Source: a virus (Duplodnaviria > Heunggongvirae > Uroviricota > Caudoviricetes). From it: a stretch of DNA of 64,000 nt. This document shows, in pieces, positions 6,723 through 63,389 of the stretch. The translations under genes were made by a program, and so were the position numbers. The first letter of the stretch is position 1. Each line of letters starts with the position of its first letter. A model generated the notes under the pieces. The model ran no database searches and was not told where the DNA came from. It was given only the letters and a program-made list of their open reading frames with translations. The stretch is taken from IMG/VR virus record IMGVR_UViG_3300037512_000782, positions 1 to 64,000 of that record. The stretch is one strand, 5' to 3'.

Positions 6723-6766
6723 CGTAATACTCCATCAATACACTATTTTAAGAAAAATATAGCAAA

Positions 6767-7510
6767 TCATCTTGTATATGGCAACAACCTAGCGTTCAGC
6801 TCGTAGATCATCGACGGACGGTAGTTGTCATCCCCAGTATACGAAAAACATTTCTTCGTGTCAACCGCCATCGAGTGTACCATACCGCGATGACCGCCAC
6901 AATGCAGAATGTACTTGGCCGAAGCCATGTAATCGCCGAGCAGACCGATCGAAGTGAACGGACAGTCGAGAACGTCGCGTTCGGTTATCATCATGTGCTT
7001 CAGAGCGCCCAGCATCTTGAAATACCCATCGTTGTCGGCAGCGATGCCGCCGTACGGACAAGTGATTCGGATGCACATGTACTTCGTGTCAAGAAGTTCC
7101 TTTACCTTCGACAGAAGCCAGTCATGACAGTATCCTTCATATTCGCCAGTGATCAATATAGGAAATTTCGGATCTTCTGGGCGAGGCATCCCATGGGCGA
7201 CCGGATACGATTCCAGCGTGACCGCACGATCCATCGCCGGATGGTCGAACTTGCCCAAGAAAATCGCCTTGTCATACTTTCCGATCTTCGTGGAATAATG
7301 GTCATACCAATCGTGGAAAATGTAGACATTGTTCCTACCTTCGGCACGGCGCACAAGGCCGCCACCGAACTGCGTGACTCCCAGCTTCGCATTGTCATTG
7401 GGTGACGAGAACTTCGTCTCTACACCGATGGAACGAGCCACGGCTACGGCAAGTATGTCGTACTTTGATTCGCCTTCGAAGGCACCAAGGTCTTTACCGA
7501 AACTGATCAT
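6767..7510 (-). CDS. hypothetical protein, possibly a degenerate GT-B glycosyltransferase-like fold
   Basis: ATGA-coupled to the upstream glycosyltransferase; the fold guess is weak. Confidence 0.55.
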   Translation of the reverse strand: MISFGKDLGAFEGESKYDILAVAVARSIGVETKFSSPNDNAKLGVTQFGGGLVRRAEGRNNVYIFHDWYDHYSTKIGKYDKAIFLGKFDHPAMDRAVTLESYPVAHGMPRPEDPKFPILITGEYEGYCHDWLLSKVKELLDTKYMCIRITCPYGGIAADNDGYFKMLGALKHMMITERDVLDCPFTSIGLLGDYMASAKYILHCGGHRGMVHSMAVDTKKCFSYTGDDNYRPSMIYELNARLLPYTR

Positions 7511-8565
7511 TCGTCACCGTTCTCCACGATTTGCTTCGCCTTCTCCACGAAGTCGGCAATCTCCTTCCGCTGTTCGTCCGACAAGTCTGGAATAGGATCG
7601 AAGATTTCTTGGACGAAAGTCGGAATGTAGCCGGGGCCATCTTCGGCCATGACCGCTTGCAGAATCTTCGTGAAGCTGATTTCTTCCTCGTAGTCGATGT
7701 CGTAAATCGTGGTATCGATCGTGAGGAGAGTCTTCTGCGTACAAGCCCACCTCAAGCGCACATTCAAGCGTTTCTTCTTGTCGTACTTTTCGACAAGTTC
7801 GGTGAGCGTCACCTTCTTGGCCACATAGGCTTCCAAGTCTTCCTTGGTCATACGGCGGATGCAAGCGCACAGCTTACGGTTGTACGTATATACGGACGAC
7901 GCTTGGTACGCTTCCGTGTTGACTTGCGGATGGAACAGATGATAGATGTAGCCAGTCGTACGGCAGACCGGGCCTACAAGGCGCTTAATCTTGTACGTAA
8001 ATGCATCATCTTCAGCACCCCATTCATAGAAGTCCTCGTCGAATCCGCCGACAGCTTCCCAAGTGGATTTCAAGTACATGTTGCAAAGGCCAGTCTGCCG
8101 CTGGATATGCACACCATGGAAACAGAACTTCGAGTTGATTGTTCCTCCACCGAGCAGCGTCCTCGTATGGGCCTCGGTCAAGTAATCGACGCCGTCGTAC
8201 GGATAAAGTATTCCGCAGCAGTTCCTACGAAGAAGTTCGGTGCCGTTCTCTATCGACTTCGCGGCTTCGTCGTTCAAATAGCTGTCCGCATCGACCATGA
8301 CGATGACATCCGATTCGGCTGCCTTGATAGCCTCGTTAAGCAATTTCGTCTTGTGGAAGCGAGTTCCGTCGTCGACTTGAACGCGCTTGACGTGCGGATT
8401 GTAGGTTGAAAGTTTTTCCGATTGGCTCGACTCGCCTTGTTCAGCAATGACGATTTCGGCGTCCGGCATTAGTTCTATACACCGATCGATTACAGCGAAT
8501 AGATTGCGCCGTCTGAACGAGTTCTTACCGTCCATGAAAGCCATTACTATCGAAAAATTGGGCAT
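7507..8565 (-). CDS. GT-A glycosyltransferase (GT2/GT7-like)
   Basis: FSIVMAF start, EIVIAEQ, FHKTKLLN, VDAD (DxD), GGFDEDFYEWGAEDD, YHLFH. Confidence 0.9.
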   Translation of the reverse strand: MPNFSIVMAFMDGKNSFRRRNLFAVIDRCIELMPDAEIVIAEQGESSQSEKLSTYNPHVKRVQVDDGTRFHKTKLLNEAIKAAESDVIVMVDADSYLNDEAAKSIENGTELLRRNCCGILYPYDGVDYLTEAHTRTLLGGGTINSKFCFHGVHIQRQTGLCNMYLKSTWEAVGGFDEDFYEWGAEDDAFTYKIKRLVGPVCRTTGYIYHLFHPQVNTEAYQASSVYTYNRKLCACIRRMTKEDLEAYVAKKVTLTELVEKYDKKKRLNVRLRWACTQKTLLTIDTTIYDIDYEEEISFTKILQAVMAEDGPGYIPTFVQEIFDPIPDLSDEQRKEIADFVEKAKQIVENGDE

Positions 8566-8579
8566 ATACAGCTCTTTTG

Positions 8580-8628: not shown

Positions 8629-11619
8629 ATGCCATTTAACGGAATTACAAACCTTCGTGACGCGAAGGAGTCAGTAAAGCTCAGCCCTAAGCAGCTGAAC
8701 GAGATAAAGAAGTGCGCATTGGATCCTCTCTACTTCATGAATAACTATATGTTCATTAACACGAAAGATAATGGCATGCAGTTATTCAAGACGTGGCCAT
8801 TCCAAGACGAAGCAGTCAAGAGATTCTTAAAATACCGCTTCAACATCAACAAGTGGAGCCGTCAGGTCGGTAAATCTACGATCGTGCGTGGCTTCATCCT
8901 ATGGTACGCAATGTTCCACAGCGACCAGCTCGTGGCCATGCTCGCAAACAAGTTGGCATTGGCCAAGGAACAGCTGCAGTTGCTCCGTGACTCATACGTG
9001 GCGCTGCCATTCTGGCTTCAACCCGGCGTGAAGCTATGGAACAAGATGAGTATTCAGTTCTCGAACAATACTCGTATCCTAGTGGCCGCAACGACTCCGG
9101 ACGGCGTCCGTGGTTTCTCGCCCAACCTACTTTACTTGGACGAATTTGCGTTCTTGAGAAACGGATTGGCCGACGACTTCATGGCTTCCGTGTTCCCGTC
9201 AATTTCTTCCGGTAAGAAGACCCGCGTTATCATCACCAGCTGTGTCACCAAGGATACCATGGTATTCACCCCAGATGGCATTAAAACGGTCGAAGACTTC
9301 ATCATCGATGACGGACGTGTTCTAGGATACGAAGTCCCAGAATACCAAGTATTGGGCCGATATGGCATGAACCGAGGGCATATAATGCACAACGACGGTG
9401 CGGCCAAGGAAACCAGAGTCATTTCAACTCGGTATTCCGAAGTCGAAACCTCATTGATGCACAAGTTCTGGACCTGCCGCGACGGCGTCTATCAGATCCG
9501 TCGCGCACACGAGCTGAAGGTCGGCGACTACGTAATGATCAAGTACGGCATGAACTGCTGGGGAGACGACAAGATTGACTTCGACGACAGCCAATCGAAA
9601 CCCAGATATCCACTTGGTAAAATCAATGAAATATCCGAAGAATTAGCATATTTCTTTGGGTTATACATAGCTGAAGGCTGTGCAATGCACACTCCAGCGC
9701 ATCATTATGTCATTATAACATGTGGTGACGATATTCTAAATGACCTAAATTCGATTGGCGTACAATTTAAAAAACTTGACAAATTTCATTATAGAGTTGA
9801 CCGCAAATCTATATGTATGCTATTGGAATGTGTCGGTTTTGATTTAACTAGACATGCAAATCGCAAGGTTATTCCAGACCGTTTAATGCGGATGTCTAAA
9901 CGAAATGTCGCCGCCATGATTCGAGGCATGTTTGACGGAGACGGATGCTCAACAAAAAAACGTAAGCGTCTATCCTACGCATCAACGTCCAAACGGCTTA
10001 TTGATCAGTTGCGCGTTCTTTTAGCAAACTTTGGTATTTTAAGCAATTTGTATCATAAATACACCAAACCCACCAAGCGAGTTAAAGTTTCTAGTGAAGT
10101 ATGGAATCTTGAAATAAATCAGCAAGATATGGTTGATTTATTCTTCACTGAAATTGGGTTCGGACTGAAACGGAAATCAGATACATACTTCACGCAAGAC
10201 CAGCATAAGAAACGTCCTAGCCGATATGACTATATTCCGTTTGCCGCACCGGAAATTCGCCGTTTAAAGAAAGAAAAGGTGCTAACAAACAAGGAATTCA
10301 AGCTCACTGGCGGTATCTGCGACAAGCACGACATACATTTAAACCGTAAACTGGTGCTTGAAATCAAGTCCAAACTTCCAGAGGAAGTCTGGTCTAAGTA
10401 TGACGTGTTCAAGAACGCCGAACCGGACTGCGTATGGACACCTATTACCGAAATTACAAAGTCATTCAATAAAGTGTACGACTTCTCACTGAACGACGAT
10501 AACTATAACGGTTATGGAGAGACTGAATGGTCGCATTCAGTTGTACATAATTTATTAGTTTGTCAGAACACGCCACAAGGACTTAACCACTTCTACCGCA
10601 TGTGGGAAGACGCCGTCGACGAGAACACGGCTTCCTACCACGACTTGACTTCTCGCTACGTCCGTTCAGTCGTGAAGTGGAACGAAGTGCCCGGTCGTGA
10701 TGCCCAGTGGGGTATCGATGAAATGGCTCGTATCGGCGAACAGAAGTTCAGACAAGAATACGAGTGCGAATTCATCGGTTCTGCAGTGACACTTATCGAC
10801 TATAAGATCTTGCAGAAACTGAAGCCGGACGAACCGCTCAAGATGGCCAACACGCCGCCGGACTTCCAGATGCGAATGTTCCAGAAGCCGATTATCCGTC
10901 AGAAGATGGAATTGAACGGCTGGACTTACATCGCGTCAATCGATACTGGCTACGGTATCCGTAAGGACTATCACGTTCTGCAGATTCTTCTTGCAAAGAG
11001 CAACATCGACCTCGAACAAGTTTTCGTCATGTCGTCCAATACGGTGACTATCGAAGACTTCTGCGCATATTCCTACCTTGTACTCAAAGGATATGGATTC
11101 CCGCCGCTTACTATCGAATACAACGGCCCTGGCGCTCGTACGCTAGGTATCATGTTCAACAACTTGCAGTACGAGAACCTTGTCCACTACGACAACAAGC
11201 TTCGCGGAATGTGGGCTACCGACACCATCAAGCAAACCGCCGTCATGCTTCTGAAGCTGTACGTCCAGCGTTTCTACTGCAAACTGCACGACGAGGCGAC
11301 AATCAACGAACTCATGTCCTTCACGACGACGACAGAATCCGGACGTAAGTGGGGCGCTACTGGCGGAAACCACGACGACCACGTGACTTCGCTATACTGG
11401 TGCATCTACTACGCAGCATCGCCGATGTTCGAGGGCGGCAACGTCGAGGAAGTCGACTTCCTCAAGGGTCTCGAACTGGCCTTCACGGCAATCGGAAATA
11501 CTGGCGAGGAGACCAACCGTGCGCTAGAGTTCGTCCAAGACCAGATTGCACAGCGAGAACAGCTTGCAATAGGCCGTCTGCAGCAACAGCAGCAAGAACA
11601 AGCCGAGCAAATTGTATAA
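8629..11619 (+). CDS. terminase large subunit (T4 gp17-like) containing an intein
   Basis: Walker A SRQVGKST, Walker B LLYLDEFAF, coupling motif IITS/TPQGLNHFY split by the intein, FRQEYECEF, nuclease SIDTGYG and HDD. Confidence 0.95.
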   Translation: MPFNGITNLRDAKESVKLSPKQLNEIKKCALDPLYFMNNYMFINTKDNGMQLFKTWPFQDEAVKRFLKYRFNINKWSRQVGKSTIVRGFILWYAMFHSDQLVAMLANKLALAKEQLQLLRDSYVALPFWLQPGVKLWNKMSIQFSNNTRILVAATTPDGVRGFSPNLLYLDEFAFLRNGLADDFMASVFPSISSGKKTRVIITSCVTKDTMVFTPDGIKTVEDFIIDDGRVLGYEVPEYQVLGRYGMNRGHIMHNDGAAKETRVISTRYSEVETSLMHKFWTCRDGVYQIRRAHELKVGDYVMIKYGMNCWGDDKIDFDDSQSKPRYPLGKINEISEELAYFFGLYIAEGCAMHTPAHHYVIITCGDDILNDLNSIGVQFKKLDKFHYRVDRKSICMLLECVGFDLTRHANRKVIPDRLMRMSKRNVAAMIRGMFDGDGCSTKKRKRLSYASTSKRLIDQLRVLLANFGILSNLYHKYTKPTKRVKVSSEVWNLEINQQDMVDLFFTEIGFGLKRKSDTYFTQDQHKKRPSRYDYIPFAAPEIRRLKKEKVLTNKEFKLTGGICDKHDIHLNRKLVLEIKSKLPEEVWSKYDVFKNAEPDCVWTPITEITKSFNKVYDFSLNDDNYNGYGETEWSHSVVHNLLVCQNTPQGLNHFYRMWEDAVDENTASYHDLTSRYVRSVVKWNEVPGRDAQWGIDEMARIGEQKFRQEYECEFIGSAVTLIDYKILQKLKPDEPLKMANTPPDFQMRMFQKPIIRQKMELNGWTYIASIDTGYGIRKDYHVLQILLAKSNIDLEQVFVMSSNTVTIEDFCAYSYLVLKGYGFPPLTIEYNGPGARTLGIMFNNLQYENLVHYDNKLRGMWATDTIKQTAVMLLKLYVQRFYCKLHDEATINELMSFTTTTESGRKWGATGGNHDDHVTSLYWCIYYAASPMFEGGNVEEVDFLKGLELAFTAIGNTGEETNRALEFVQDQIAQREQLAIGRLQQQQQEQAEQIV
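9241..10569 (+). mobile_element. intein with LAGLIDADG homing endonuclease (443 aa)
   Basis: Begins CVTKDT; block B TSLMHKF; LAYFFGLYIAEG and IRGMFDGDG; block F VYDFSL; ends CQN followed by T; removal restores IITSTPQG; core is visibly AT-rich. Confidence 0.93.
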
Positions 11620-54893: not shown

Positions 54894-56453
54894 CTAGATG
54901 TTGGTCAGCGAGGCAGCAGACTCTTGGGTCTTGTCAGCTGGTTGCTGGGAAGGGCCGACATCGGCACCCAGCTCATCTTCTTCAGTGCCGAACGCGAAGT
55001 CTTCGCCTTCTGGCGGAAGGTCGACTTGTTCACCGCCAACTTGATCCATCATCGCGCCGAACGAACCATCGTTCATGAAGTCGTTCGACGCGGTAAGAGC
55101 GCTAGGATCAGCCGGAGCATCCAAGTCAAATCCGTCGGTGGAGGCAGCAGCACCACCACTACCGAATGCGGTTTCACCCGGCAATGACAAGTCAGAAGTG
55201 CTCATGTCAGACGGAGACGCAGTCGGAGCATTCATTGCATCTGGGAAGATTTCAGTGAGCTTGTCGTTAAACTCGGTAAGCGAAACATCGGCAGTCTGCG
55301 GGTCGTCAAGATAATCCAAGAATTCTTGAATCTTTTCTTCAGGAACTTGGTTGCGCTCCAGTTCTTGGAACTCCTTGAAGAACGCATTGAACACATCCTT
55401 CGGATCCTCGTTCTTCATCGGCTTCGTACCGTTATAGATTTCAGACGGACTCAGCGAGAAACCACGTCCAGTCTGGCCGCCTTCCTTGGCATCTTGAGAC
55501 ATCTTCTGAGAAAGAATCTTGCCCAATGTGTCAAGAGCTTGATGGCTGACGCTAGACATGTTGTCGAAGATTGCGCTCTTCATGTCGACAAGAGCATTCT
55601 TGTCATCATCGCCGCCATTGACATCGCCAGCGCCAATGGCGTTGTTTTCCATGCCAGGGATGTTCTCTGGAGGAGCGATGTCTTGTTCTTCGCCGTCCAT
55701 CGCGAACGCTTCTGCGCCCGGTGCTTGTTCGCCATCTTCAAGCAAAGTAACAGCGTTACACATATTCAACAGCTGCGCAAGGCCGCTGTCCACGCATTCG
55801 TGATAAATGGAACTGTCGGTGGCCATCCATGAATTGCTGGCGTCCTCGGTTCCGTTGCTAAGGCCATTCAATGTCTGCATCGTATCGAGATCGTTTCCGA
55901 CGTCGTAAGTGTTGTTGGAGTCGATAAGTTCGTCGCAAGTCTTCAAGATTGTATAGCCGAAGTTGTTGACGAACTGAGGACTCTGCAAGGATACTTCGTA
56001 AAGGTTCGACAGACCAGTGTCCGAAGTCAGCTTCACGGAGATATTTTCGTTTTCGTTCGGATAGAACAGCTCGACAAGCATATCATGGTCACGACGGTTG
56101 ATGATGAACTTGCAGTGAGTTTCCTTCATGTCGATACTTGCAAGGTTCATGCGCATGCCACGGTAGGCGGTATTGGTCACGGCTTCCGTAAAGACCTTCT
56201 TGTAGAGGTCGCGGGTCGTAATCAAGTTCTTGCCATATACCAATGGCTTGTTCTGGTCGTAGGTACGGTGATCCCAGTCGTCGCCATCTTGGGGCTTCTT
56301 TACTGGGTCTGGAATCTGCTTTGTCAGCATCTTAATCACTTTCGTCTTTGAAGGAACTATAGGGCCGCTCTGCGTGGTCACGTAAACATAGTCCTTCATT
56401 GCCTTGAGAAGCGTATTCTTGTCGATCTGGGTTCCCATGGAAATATCCTGCAT
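54894..56453 (-). CDS. large protein with a very acidic C-terminal half (probably late/virion)
   Basis: ATAAACT on the minus strand at 56467; start re-called at MQDISMG; terminator at 54849-54875. Confidence 0.8.
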   Translation of the reverse strand: MQDISMGTQIDKNTLLKAMKDYVYVTTQSGPIVPSKTKVIKMLTKQIPDPVKKPQDGDDWDHRTYDQNKPLVYGKNLITTRDLYKKVFTEAVTNTAYRGMRMNLASIDMKETHCKFIINRRDHDMLVELFYPNENENISVKLTSDTGLSNLYEVSLQSPQFVNNFGYTILKTCDELIDSNNTYDVGNDLDTMQTLNGLSNGTEDASNSWMATDSSIYHECVDSGLAQLLNMCNAVTLLEDGEQAPGAEAFAMDGEEQDIAPPENIPGMENNAIGAGDVNGGDDDKNALVDMKSAIFDNMSSVSHQALDTLGKILSQKMSQDAKEGGQTGRGFSLSPSEIYNGTKPMKNEDPKDVFNAFFKEFQELERNQVPEEKIQEFLDYLDDPQTADVSLTEFNDKLTEIFPDAMNAPTASPSDMSTSDLSLPGETAFGSGGAAASTDGFDLDAPADPSALTASNDFMNDGSFGAMMDQVGGEQVDLPPEGEDFAFGTEEDELGADVGPSQQPADKTQESAASLTNI

Positions 56454-56531
56454 GTGCTTGCTTTTCAGTTTATACAAATGCAAAAATGCGGCGAGCGCTG
56501 ACTCACCGCATTTTGTACCCATGACATAAAT

Positions 56532-57422
56532 TTACTGAACCAAGTCGAACTGGGAATAAGCGCCAGCGGAGCATTCAGCCGCACCCATCCAGAGAGTCAT
56601 CGGCTTTTCTGGATCGGCACCAGGGATAAGCGAAGTTGCCTTGAGGGACATCTGCTCGACACCCTTGAACGATGCGTAGGTGATGTCGATGTCGTATTCT
56701 CCGCCGATGCCCTTCATGTAGTTGAAGAGCTGGACTGGGAACACGGTGACGGTGCCCGGTCGGAAAATCTTGTGGACAAGCTGCGTATCGATGCCGCGAG
56801 TGCATGTCGACGGTACGCAGTAAGTAATCTGCTGAGACATCTTGCCCTTGATGTAGAGCTTGATGCCGCCGTCGTCGATACGGAGAGTCACGAACTCGCA
56901 CGTCGGAACCGCACGGAGCTTCGTAACAAAGTCCTTGACCATATCCTCGGAGAAGTGCATTTCACCGACCTTCATCATAGGGTCGTTATCCCTAGTGAAC
57001 GGAATGTGAGAATGGCCTTCCTTGAAACAGCTGGGGTCAGCAGTCGGCGTACGGCAAGTGATACCGCCACCAGAAAACTTGATGTACTCGTAACGGCGAC
57101 CAGTAATCGACGTGTCTACGGACAGTTCAGCCGTGCCGCGCTTGGGGAAGTTGGCCAGTTCCGCATACTTCACAAATTCATTCAGCGAGAAGATGTTGAT
57201 GCGGTTGGTATCGAAATCCAAGTCTGCATCCGATGCAGCAAGGTGTGTCATCATCGCCATGTCTGGAACGCTGATGTGGTTTCCCGGAATACGGCCCTTC
57301 ACGTTACCCTTGAACATGATGACGCATCCAGTCTTTGTAATAGAACTGATGTTCTTCAAGATCTTGTAGAACGGTTCGCTAAAACGAATGCCTACCGCTG
57401 GTTTTTCAATTTCTTCAGCCAT
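56532..57422 (-). CDS. sliding clamp (gp45-like)
   Basis: FSEPFYKILKNISSI, INIFSLNEFV, TADPSC match gp45 landmarks (L.KNF..IN, IYDLN.FL, ADPS); promoter TTGAAT-17-TATATT at 57442-57470. Confidence 0.75.
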   Translation of the reverse strand: MAEEIEKPAVGIRFSEPFYKILKNISSITKTGCVIMFKGNVKGRIPGNHISVPDMAMMTHLAASDADLDFDTNRINIFSLNEFVKYAELANFPKRGTAELSVDTSITGRRYEYIKFSGGGITCRTPTADPSCFKEGHSHIPFTRDNDPMMKVGEMHFSEDMVKDFVTKLRAVPTCEFVTLRIDDGGIKLYIKGKMSQQITYCVPSTCTRGIDTQLVHKIFRPGTVTVFPVQLFNYMKGIGGEYDIDITYASFKGVEQMSLKATSLIPGADPEKPMTLWMGAAECSAGAYSQFDLVQ

Positions 57423-57449: not shown

Positions 57450-59642
57450 CTAAATGTATTTTGGATTCAAATCGCCCTTCGTGACCACTTTTTTGCCGAT
57501 TTCGACGAATTTCGGCTCAAGCTGGTTCCACTCAAGCGGCGTAAACGGAGCATTGACATCGACACACCAGCTGCAGTCAACCTCGATCTGCTGCATGCGA
57601 GCCTCCAGACGGTGCATCATCATGGAAACGACGTATGGTACGCAGCCCCTACCGTCACCAAACTTATACAGCTTGCCGAAGTTCTTCAAGATGGGAAGGT
57701 AGCCGCCACGGATAGCGACGAACGGCCCGTCCAGAACGGCAACGTCATGCGAACCAGTGACAGACACGGTTCCAGCAACACGGCGGTTGTACATTCCGTC
57801 CTTTGTCGAATATTCGCTATACATGCCATAGGTATTAGGGCAGCGCATCCAAGTGCCATCCGGCAAGAAATTCTCATAGCCGAACGGAGCGACAGCACCT
57901 ACATCGCTAGGGACGGCTTCGAGCTTTTGTATGAACGACGGATCATATATCAGCGAAGACGCATGGGCAAGTACAATCCAAGAAGGCGGAACCTTCGGAT
58001 TCACCTTGACAATCTTTTCAGCGACACGAGCGATGTTGAGGAATATCGACATCTGCGGATTGCTCTTCTTGCACATCCTTACTGGCTGGTCACTAGCCAA
58101 GTAGACAAGTTCATCACGACTGGAGGCATACTTCTTGTATGGAACCTTGACGTCGGATCCCTTGCGCCTATAAAGAATGGTAATCACGCACGGCGTCTTA
58201 CTGTGCTGCAAGATCGTGTTATTGTCAAGACGGATTGTCTCGACCGGGCGGATACCCAGAGCCTTGCGAAGCTGGTTCTTCTCGCCTTCTTCCTTGGCGC
58301 GTTCCGCATATACGGTACGCCTACGGTCTTCTGCGCGAAGTTCGTTTTCGTACAAGGCAGCCTTGATGGCGACTTCGAATTCGTCCATCACCGGGGTCTC
58401 CCATACAAACTGCTTGGACGTCTTCTTACGAGTCTTCGCAGCAGCCACTCCAGCCTTGTGACGCTTGTAATAGGCAGCACGACGGTTCGTCTTGTTTAGC
58501 TTGTCCAGATGTTTCTTCTGGAATTCGGAGAGTTCCATCTTCGGATCGACATTGACTCCAGAAGCGACAATGGCGTCAACATCCTCTTGAACCCAGCCCC
58601 ACATCGGATACATCGGCCAGCCCTTGGCTTGTACCTCGGCACAATGGGCATTGTACTCGTCAACCGTCATCACGCAATAGTCCTTCGACTTCTGAATGTG
58701 CATCAGCTTGGGAGGAGCAACGACGCGGCACTTACCGGATATCAAGTTGTCAATCCAGTAATTGCTCTTGCCGAACTTTGTACGGATAGCGAAACGGTTG
58801 TAATACGGCTTGCCTTCACAATAGAAATAACGGCGGTTGATCTGGTCGCATAGCTCATCGAGTTCGGACTTCTTGAACAAATTCCTCGTGCGAGCGCCAA
58901 CCTTGACTTGCTCTGGATGCAGAAGCTTCATGAATATGAACTTCGTTAACGTGCGACGAGAAATCTTCATGTATACGCAAGCCATGCCAGTAGTCAGCAC
59001 GTCTGGAAGAGGCTCCTTCTTTATCAAACGGCTACCTTTCTTTACGGTCTCGTTGATAGAGTCGTTGACATACTGGATGATGTTCTCACGAGTCATCCAC
59101 TTGTATCGCTTGCGGCCAGTCGTACTGTGAATCCAGAACGCGATGTTCGCCTTGCCAGCTCGGCAAGCTGCTCGGAGCTTTCCCGGTGTCGTACCGATGA
59201 ACGTAGCGCTGTCCTTGACATTTAGAGTCTTGGGAAGGAACTTGAAATTCTTGGACGGCACGTAGTTCTTGAGGAACCAGTCGTAATCACGGAAGTAGAC
59301 GAACTTGCCGTAATCGTCGGCTGGCTGTTCCTTGATAATGCCCTTTCTGACCAGTCGCAGATACGTCATCGGACTTACATCCAAGTCAGCGACGATTTCA
59401 GCCGGACGGATCTTTGCGTAAGGGTGCGTAGTGCAAGGAGGTTTCAGACCATAGGCTGAAAGCTTCTTCAGACACGCATCGTAACGGTATTTCTTCTGGC
59501 CTTGATAATTGACTATGTAAGGTATCCCATCAAAGAAACCCATTCCCTTCAAGTCAGAAACCGGACGGTCAAGATACTGCGCAATCTTCAACGGCTGCAC
59601 ATATTCATCTATACCCTTCTGTTTCAACGCACCAAGAGCCAT
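57450..59642 (-). CDS. tandem MerR/Xis-like HTH protein fused to a degenerate GT-A glycosyltransferase-like domain
   Basis: Four to five HTH-like units in the N-terminal ~300 aa; C-terminal WIVLAHAS..VGAVAPFG..VAVLDGPFVAIR; TAATG-coupled to primase. Confidence 0.6.
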   Translation of the reverse strand: MALGALKQKGIDEYVQPLKIAQYLDRPVSDLKGMGFFDGIPYIVNYQGQKKYRYDACLKKLSAYGLKPPCTTHPYAKIRPAEIVADLDVSPMTYLRLVRKGIIKEQPADDYGKFVYFRDYDWFLKNYVPSKNFKFLPKTLNVKDSATFIGTTPGKLRAACRAGKANIAFWIHSTTGRKRYKWMTRENIIQYVNDSINETVKKGSRLIKKEPLPDVLTTGMACVYMKISRRTLTKFIFMKLLHPEQVKVGARTRNLFKKSELDELCDQINRRYFYCEGKPYYNRFAIRTKFGKSNYWIDNLISGKCRVVAPPKLMHIQKSKDYCVMTVDEYNAHCAEVQAKGWPMYPMWGWVQEDVDAIVASGVNVDPKMELSEFQKKHLDKLNKTNRRAAYYKRHKAGVAAAKTRKKTSKQFVWETPVMDEFEVAIKAALYENELRAEDRRRTVYAERAKEEGEKNQLRKALGIRPVETIRLDNNTILQHSKTPCVITILYRRKGSDVKVPYKKYASSRDELVYLASDQPVRMCKKSNPQMSIFLNIARVAEKIVKVNPKVPPSWIVLAHASSLIYDPSFIQKLEAVPSDVGAVAPFGYENFLPDGTWMRCPNTYGMYSEYSTKDGMYNRRVAGTVSVTGSHDVAVLDGPFVAIRGGYLPILKNFGKLYKFGDGRGCVPYVVSMMMHRLEARMQQIEVDCSWCVDVNAPFTPLEWNQLEPKFVEIGKKVVTKGDLNPKYI

Positions 59643-60790
59643 TAGAACCACACCTCTACTTTCTGTTTTGCTTGCATCTTCTGTACCAGCTGCAGACGAG
59701 TCTCGCGCTGCTTCTGGCGTTCACGTGCGGCCATGTCGCCGCGTTCGAGAGCGAAGATAATAGCCGCGCCTTCTGGCGGCAAGCTACGACCTTCGATAAA
59801 TTCACTGGAAACGTAGCCGTCGTCATCGACTGGCATCTCGCCAGACAGAACGGCTCCGTTGACATCCTTTTCCTTTATTCCAGACCAGTTGAACCACTTG
59901 TACCCCTTCTTGACGGATTCGATACGAGCAAGTTCACCAGCGTTGTCGTTATCCCAGATGACCGTACAGTTTTCCTTGTGCTCTGCAATCTGCGGATTGT
60001 CCGCAATGACTTCGTCAAAGTGCGAGATGCCGCCGATGGCGATAGCATTGCGAATGAACGTAGAGTCAATCGTTCCTTCCAAGATGTAGAACGGCTTGGT
60101 CACATCGAGGAAGTCGATGTTGTACGCTTGACGCTTGACGCCTTCGAAGTTTCGATAGCGCAGCTTGTTATCGGGGTCTAGCGCACGAGCGTCGAACTGC
60201 GTCCACGCACCGCCGTACTTGTAGAACGGAATGATCAGACGGTTCTTGAACTCGTTGCCGATCGGACGTCCTTGCTCGTTCAGCACGAGTCCGCCCAAGT
60301 CGTCGCGCTTCAAGAACTGGTCGCCTTCCTGGCATACGAACCAAAGGTCATACACTTCTGGACGAATGCGGCGTCCTTGACAGAAAGCCACTGCTTGTTC
60401 CGCGAGAGGATGATGGTCTAGTAGAGAAATGAGTTCGCCATCTTCGAACGGCAAGTCGACTTTCTTCTTGGGCAAGACTTCTTCTCGCTTGTCGTCAGAC
60501 CTATCGCCGTCGAAACCGAACAGAAGCATTCGCTTGTATGCGGCGTCGTCATTCTCCTTCAAGTATTTCATGAAGTGCATGCTCTGTCCGCATTTATAAC
60601 AACGGAACAGCCAACGGTCACGATAGACGTAAGCCTTCTTCTTGTTCGGTCTTGCTGGATCACCACAGAACGGACAAATGAAATTATAGTATTGGGACTT
60701 CTTCTCTAATGCGAAAGAGTTGTCGCCGAATTCAGCTTCCACCGCTTCTTCCAGCGCCGCATCAGGAATATTAGCATAGGAAAAGGACAT
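59642..60790 (-). CDS. DNA primase (gp61-like)
   Basis: NFICPFCGD..CYKCG zinc domain, RLIIPF, ILEGTIDSTF, WDND, KDVN TOPRIM motifs. Confidence 0.93.
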   Translation of the reverse strand: MSFSYANIPDAALEEAVEAEFGDNSFALEKKSQYYNFICPFCGDPARPNKKKAYVYRDRWLFRCYKCGQSMHFMKYLKENDDAAYKRMLLFGFDGDRSDDKREEVLPKKKVDLPFEDGELISLLDHHPLAEQAVAFCQGRRIRPEVYDLWFVCQEGDQFLKRDDLGGLVLNEQGRPIGNEFKNRLIIPFYKYGGAWTQFDARALDPDNKLRYRNFEGVKRQAYNIDFLDVTKPFYILEGTIDSTFIRNAIAIGGISHFDEVIADNPQIAEHKENCTVIWDNDNAGELARIESVKKGYKWFNWSGIKEKDVNGAVLSGEMPVDDDGYVSSEFIEGRSLPPEGAAIIFALERGDMAARERQKQRETRLQLVQKMQAKQKVEVWF

Positions 60791-62867: not shown

Positions 62868-63389
62868 CTAATCGTTCAATCCCGCCATAATAAAGGCTTC
62901 TTCTTCTGGATCTTCTTCAGTAAGTTTATCAAGATACTCTTGCGAGAGCTTGATCGGCTCGCTGATTTCTTGTTCAGATTCATCGGCACGAGTAGCGGCG
63001 TTCTCGATATCCGATTCAGAAGCGTTGATGCCAGCCTCCTTCGCTACCAGCAGCTTGATATCCATATCAAGCATCGCCGCCAGCTTATTCGCGTCCACCA
63101 TCTTCTCGATGGCGACCAACAGCTGCATCATGCCAAAGTCCTTCTTACAAAACTTGTTGTACATCCACCAGAGGCCAGCATTTATCTTCTCGCTGTACTT
63201 CTTCAAGGTAGCTTCGGGCATGGTAAGAACCAAGCAAGCGTCACCCGGAAATCTCGGTGTCTTCAAGTATTCATCAAAGACTTCGCGAATCTTGCCGTGT
63301 CGAGAGTCATCCAGTTCGATGTCCTCCAACTGGACAACTTCTTCATCAGCGTCGTCAGTTAAATATTTCCCCAGTACGTCCATAGACAT
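62868..63389 (-). CDS. acidic hypothetical protein, possibly a gp33-like late coactivator
   Basis: KLAAMLDMDIKLLVAKEA weakly recalls gp33; lies near gene 32; function is speculative. Confidence 0.45.
   Translation of the reverse strand: MSMDVLGKYLTDDADEEVVQLEDIELDDSRHGKIREVFDEYLKTPRFPGDACLVLTMPEATLKKYSEKINAGLWWMYNKFCKKDFGMMQLLVAIEKMVDANKLAAMLDMDIKLLVAKEAGINASESDIENAATRADESEQEISEPIKLSQEYLDKLTEEDPEEEAFIMAGLND

Follow-up and report, generated by a model that had tools for sequence, protein, structure and literature searches.

We wanted to establish what kind of protein is encoded between the primase and sliding clamp genes of a T4-like jumbo phage, and what it might do there. The gene lies in a stretch of 64,000 nucleotides (the window), the initial 64 kb of a 348-kb virus record, G000 (50% GC, 91% complete), which carries 42 tRNAs and T4-like replication genes. 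It is present in one copy in this genome, and we found no stand-alone intact paralogue of its glycosyltransferase (GT) domain in G000. The first-pass annotation had described a very basic protein of about 730 aa, coupled to primase and directly upstream of the clamp, and this description was accurate. The 730-aa ORF runs uninterrupted on the minus strand from an ATG at 59642 to a stop at 57450. The ATG overlaps the primase TAA by one base, the clamp gene begins 27 bp downstream, and the computed pI is 9.6. Both the pI and the structural models were obtained for P0003, a cluster representative in which 8 residues differ from those of the window protein. We number residues along the 730-aa protein; Table 1 gives the coordinates of all features.

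Table 1. Features of the fusion gene, its neighbours and other glycosyltransferase genes. Positions are those of the window, except where G000 is named.
Feature	Position	Strand	Basis or remark
Whole gene, 730 aa: five winged-HTH (wHTH) units, helical linker, pseudo-GT-A domain	57450..59642	-	intact ORF
wHTH unit 1, aa 12-66, divergent	59445..59609	-	model; HHalign 69% to unit 4
wHTH unit 2, aa 75-133	59244..59420	-	model; HHalign 94-95% to units 3 and 4
wHTH unit 3, aa 136-198	59049..59237	-	model; sequence nearest BldC/CueR (weak)
wHTH unit 4, aa 212-272	58827..59009	-	sub-cut-off HTH_17/excisionase match; weak RdfS match
Predicted wHTH unit 5, aa 278-362, long wing insertion	58557..58811	-	topology from model alone; conservation
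Basic helical linker and 42-residue helix, aa 373-462	58257..58526	-	model; 373-420 of low confidence
GT-A fold domain akin to PF13712/majastridin, catalytic motifs lost, aa 480-720	57483..58205	-	model, profiles
HAS at the place of the metal-binding HxD	57957..57965	-	aligned with HED of PF13712 proteins
gp45-like sliding clamp	56532..57422	-	phrog_223, E 1.4e-4
Unknown 542-aa gene	54894..56522	-	sole neighbour retained in both lineages
DNA primase	59642..60790	-	phrog_47, E 8.5e-37; stop overlaps fusion-gene start
Intact GT2/GT7C glycosyltransferase, invariant DxD	7507..8565	-	comparison gene
Further GT-A genes	G000 about 93065-94756, 140956, 317121		

The C-terminal part had been read as a GT-A pattern, and structure prediction confirmed it. 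Folded separately, the domain gave a pLDDT of 87 and a pTM of 0.87. Its top match among solved structures was majastridin (PDB 2nxv; Z 14.9; rmsd 5.8 across 208 residues). A GT-A or related nucleotidyltransferase fold was common to all of the top 50 structural matches. Viral and Atlas fold searches indicated PF13712, with TM scores of 0.65-0.69 to PF13712 clusters. The two top Atlas rows, at 779 and 678 aa, were viral clusters without a name; they probably belong to the fusion family because their lengths match those of its members.

The relation to PF13712 (Glyco_tranf_2_5) is faint at the level of sequence. PDB sequence searches with the GT domain gave no match. The PF13712 profile did not match the window protein, matched one of 27 family members (E 2e-4), and scored 11 bits in record G002 against 27 for the Pfam cut-off. 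We compared a profile of the fusion family with 15 bacterial PF13712 proteins and obtained 215 colinear columns at E 0.002 (probability 12%, weak by sequence alone), while the reversed control gave 0.39. The two families have in common the GT-A fold, the Gly-rich strand, a Trp and the DG...R strand. They differ in that the fusion family lacks HED, YDxD and the C-terminal His, and is always fused to HTH units.

Further, we took a census of these motifs in 44 fusion-family homologues with mutual identity below 80% and down to about 20%. In the bacterial PF13712 proteins HED/HDD was present in 15/15, the YD motif in 14/15 and the C-terminal His in 15/15. None of the 44 homologues had an acidic metal motif (HxD/DxD), and the His of HAS was kept in just 12. 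The YDxD motif, the presumed general base, was replaced by hydrophobic residues, Pro or Gly, with no acid in the region in 42/44. The C-terminal metal-binding His was also absent, with an Asp or Glu near its position in 39/44. As an internal control, the glycosyltransferase at 7507 keeps its DxD and other motifs invariant within the same clade. Since all three catalytic motifs of PF13712 are lost, and HxD/DxD is found in no homologue, inactivity appears to be family-wide, as the annotation had suspected from the HAS of a single protein. The GT domain is nevertheless the best-conserved region of the fusion protein. Columns conserved at 90% number 23/163 in the acceptor half and 0/73 in the nucleotide half. 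Judged by these alignments, the domain is a maintained pseudoenzyme and not a decaying gene.

The N-terminal half had been described as an array of HTH repeats. The AlphaFold model shows the strand-HTH-wing-helix topology in all five units named in the annotation, followed by the 42-residue helix. The full-length pTM was 0.40, so single units are reliable while their relative arrangement is unpredicted. Units 2, 3 and 4 are mutual homologues (HHalign 94-97%, control segments below 4%). The repeat claim thus holds for these three; the homology of unit 1 is weak, and unit 5 went undetected in profile comparison with the other units. Unit 5 would be an HTH according to the model, and it has the largest number of invariant residues among the five.

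Profile searches place the array near excisionases and BldC. HTH_17 was matched by 16/27 family members at E <= 0.5 (best 1.9e-7), the excisionase model by 7/27 and the BldC model by 1/27. The window protein alone scored 19.8 bits against HTH_17, below the cut-off of 27. Sequence matches in the PDB to BldC, RdfS and CueR were weak, a search of BFVD returned a phage HTH protein (E 1.6e-4), and matches to IFIT1 in the PDB sequence search were set aside as helical noise. When the full model was used for fold searches, GT matches dominated and the array was barely probed. The net charge of the array was +17 to +31 in 42/44 members, and the N-terminal region was acidic in the two deepest members. 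The unit is the same as in BldC, lambda Xis and RdfS (HTH_17, TIGR01764; PDB 6ama, 6amk, 8dgl). Those proteins are small, stand alone and polymerise on DNA, whereas here five units are joined to a helix and a pseudoenzyme in one 730-aa multidomain chain. In classical MerR proteins each chain has a single HTH ahead of the dimer helix; this protein carries five.

Word and HMMER searches returned full-length homologues, about 670-780 aa long and in the most distant cases about 20-25% identical. The scans located the gene at 30 viral and 52 metagenome loci, with contigs partly shared between the two sets; tblastn found no homologue among the isolated phages in INPHARED. Both halves were present in 55/57 distinct locus sequences, the other two being a truncated copy (L014) and a split copy (L067), both possibly assembly errors. 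We found no stand-alone GT-only relative, and four short matches were all on contigs below 2 kb. In a further locus (L011:12848-14128) a 427-aa gene is inverted, possibly also through an assembly error. Three phage contigs (L098, L099 and L129) were binned in one Prevotella MAG and two Fibrobacterota MAGs; the phage NrdD was just 37-43% identical to that of either genus.

The annotation had placed the gene inside a replisome cluster and had proposed a search for the same fusion next to primase in related phages. We found it there: primase lies directly upstream in 48/49 distinct loci with a visible upstream gene. Of the nine loci without an upstream primase, contig ends or breaks account for eight, and the last belongs to the lineage described below. 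The two genes overlap by 1 or 4 bases in 35 loci, for which 34/222 gene pairs is a rough genome baseline, related phages being non-independent samples. The order helicase, two small genes, SSB, primase, fusion, clamp is constant from 26% to 57% GC. One deep lineage departs from this arrangement (P0048, P0057 and P0060; contig up to 267 kb, 36% GC); we judged its depth from a quick tree made solely for this purpose. There a head protease and a scaffold-sized gene precede the fusion gene, and the 542-aa neighbour alone follows it. The position beside primase and clamp therefore stands, but the link to the replisome is positional and not universal, as this lineage keeps the gene among head genes. 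The 542-aa protein has a conserved N-terminal domain. Elsewhere in the window, a 173-aa gene (62868-63389) resembles T4 gp33 by eye and by position, without a library match.

The protein probably organises the phage's own DNA instead of making sugars. Our best, though tentative, reading is a covalent Xis/BldC-like organiser or regulator that bends DNA and carries a non-catalytic docking domain. BldC binds head-to-tail on 9-bp direct repeats, bends DNA and resembles Xis and RacA (PMC5859096). Five units of this type in one chain would correspond, in covalent form, to the head-to-tail filaments assembled from separate subunits by Xis, BldC and RdfS. With each unit taking up about 9 bp, the array would cover and bend some 40-50 bp of phage DNA, and its sequence anchor would likely be unit 5. 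The protein could act as a transcription regulator or as an organiser of origins or promoters, and in most lineages it would be produced together with primase and clamp. The GT-A domain would have been acquired from a PF13712 enzyme, would be catalytically dead, and may have been retained for the surface of its acceptor half, for oligomerisation or docking of a protein partner. The conserved residues of this half may, however, simply be core. The evidence does not separate a role in transcription from one in replication or packaging.

Two candidates touching on this role were rejected. Between 232 and 297 kb of G000, outside the window, a conserved intergenic element of about 55 bp recurs 71 times, once every 0.5-1 kb or so, with the core CGGGRCTGC, often a hairpin, and an end near the ribosome-binding site. 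It is an unlikely conserved binding target, as the array was not found in four relatives; it could reflect gene-cassette shuffling or be a regulatory element. A small-terminase role was also considered. No T4 gp16-type small terminase was found in five genomes, yet nothing positive points to the fusion gene. The large terminase (window 8629-11619) carries a LAGLIDADG insertion, a probable intein. Two putative promoter motifs were noted as well. The sequence TGATAAACT occurs at window positions 8578 (+), 15572 (+), 13425 (-) and 35607 (-) and at about 30 genome sites, in each case 15-40 bp ahead of a gene, and is likely the late promoter; the extended -10 motif TGCTATATT, at 6764, 8604 and 19815 (-), is likely the early one.

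A different and more doubtful family of explanations makes the dead GT-A domain a sugar-binding module, through which phage DNA would be coupled to the glycan state of the host: it either tethers the replicating genome to an envelope glycan or senses a nucleotide-sugar and so controls the DNA-bending HTH array. The tether is unlikely but comes first among the rivals. Here the HTH array would hold DNA while a lectin-like dead GT binds an envelope glycolipid or glycoprotein, by the logic of RacA and TubY. These proteins share with the fusion the layout of a MerR-type HTH, a long helix and a C-terminal module (PMC7762940), but the fusion has five HTH units and a GT-A C-terminus. In its favour, conservation is concentrated in the acceptor half, including the near-invariant aromatics W598, Y589, Y605, Y608 and H632. 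The aromatics may be structural, however. Moreover, the model has no membrane segment, five incomplete genomes contained no tubulin/FtsZ-family gene (PF00091), and TubZ was not found in the genome.

The second form, a one-component sensor whose DNA binding would switch when the dead GT takes up a nucleotide-sugar or nucleotide, is quite unlikely. Other dead enzyme folds, such as those of NrtR and Bacillus PurR, do switch DNA binding. CarH/LitR, NrtR and PurR likewise combine a DNA-binding domain with a non-catalytic enzyme fold, but with one HTH per chain and with other folds, and we know of no enzyme-derived one-component regulator with a GT-A domain. In favour of a sensor, the Asp ending strand 2 is kept in 28/44 homologues, the Asn of the next helix in 20/44 and the DG of the PF13712 motif in 36/44, and the phage encodes several GTs. 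The annotation's suggestion that the protein senses a nucleotide-sugar is nevertheless weakened by the conservation pattern, as conservation within the domain is lowest in the nucleotide-binding half; in addition, the metal and diphosphate ligands are lost in every member.

It is very unlikely that the protein is an inactive partner which recruits the intact glycosyltransferase (7507-8565) to DNA or to a substrate bound there, as had also been suggested. Inactive GT-A partners are known (Cosmc, CHPF), and the intact gene co-occurs with the fusion in 7/10 related records, the misses being partial contigs. Such co-occurrence holds for any two core genes, however. The two GTs belong to different families with no detectable sequence similarity, their genes are 49 kb apart, and the intact GT is already coupled to its own neighbour. 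A complex prediction for the pseudo-GT domain with this enzyme scored 0.00, which counts neither for nor against a partnership. The coupled neighbour encodes 247 aa, and the pair (6767-8565) was found together in 6/8 related loci. The further GT-A genes of G000 include a GT-like N-terminal domain, recognised by eye, that lies ahead of gp46, then a GT2 carrying a helical tail and lastly a GT2 of 305 aa, which adjoins a UDP-galactopyranose-mutase-like gene in a relative.

We consider it just as improbable that the domain is an active, metal-independent glycosyltransferase delivered by the HTH array to DNA or DNA-bound proteins. Metal-independent GT-A enzymes exist, one of them (BoGT6a) was among the fold-search matches, and the domain retains invariant polar residues: D567 and R645 in 44/44, S/T563 in 43/44, Q685 in 40/44 and H632 in 39/44. 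Against activity stands the missing acid at the general-base position in 42/44 members. Moreover, R645 appears to match a structural Arg of PF13712, and D567 to lie at a helix start.

Restriction sites bear on the remaining proposal. In the 348 kb of G000, 14/64 six-base palindromes are absent (expected 15-96 each), and 17/64 are at or below 10% of expectation. GGWCC and CCTG are likewise strongly depleted. In the pooled loci of the relatives depletion was milder (0.66-0.93), and the strong avoidance concerns G000. Phages with hydroxymethylated DNA show no comparable site avoidance (PMC6286503). We found no hydroxymethylase/ThyA-family gene (PF00303) and no TET/JBP gene in G000 at its 91% completeness; among five records, PF00303 was found in 1/5 and TET in 0/5. 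T4 keeps its DNA glucosyltransferases among its replication genes, a placement resembling the present one, but the T4 enzymes have a GT-B fold, are active and modify hydroxymethylcytosine, a pathway we did not find here. The annotation's idea of a reader of glycosylated phage DNA, for which the T4 placement and the several GT-like genes of G000 could speak, is thus barely credible, given the purged palindromes and the hydroxymethylase and TET genes that were not found.

We found no description of this fusion in papers or family libraries; subscription journals were mostly uncovered by the search, which is hence no proof of novelty. The passages retrieved from a jumbo-phage survey (PMC7824862) mention no such protein, and the sole existing name in the source records is an automatic 'MerR regulator' label. 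Each module is known. No description came to light of the fusion, of a covalent array of five Xis/BldC units, or of a GT-A pseudoenzyme on a DNA-binding protein. The chain is Xis/BldC-like at one end and PF13712-derived at the other, and departs from defining features of each family.

In summary, phages spanning 26-57% GC retain the gene as one full-length copy, even where identity falls to about 20%. Such retention suggests a core function, for which T4 has no obvious equivalent. The protein offers a testable case of a glycosyltransferase fold reused after loss of catalysis. Its gene also serves as a marker for an uncultured family of jumbo phages, known largely from rumen-type metagenomes. 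If the sugar-binding reading were true, as tether or as sensor, the protein would belong to a new class of regulators or anchors at the core of the whole jumbo-phage family.
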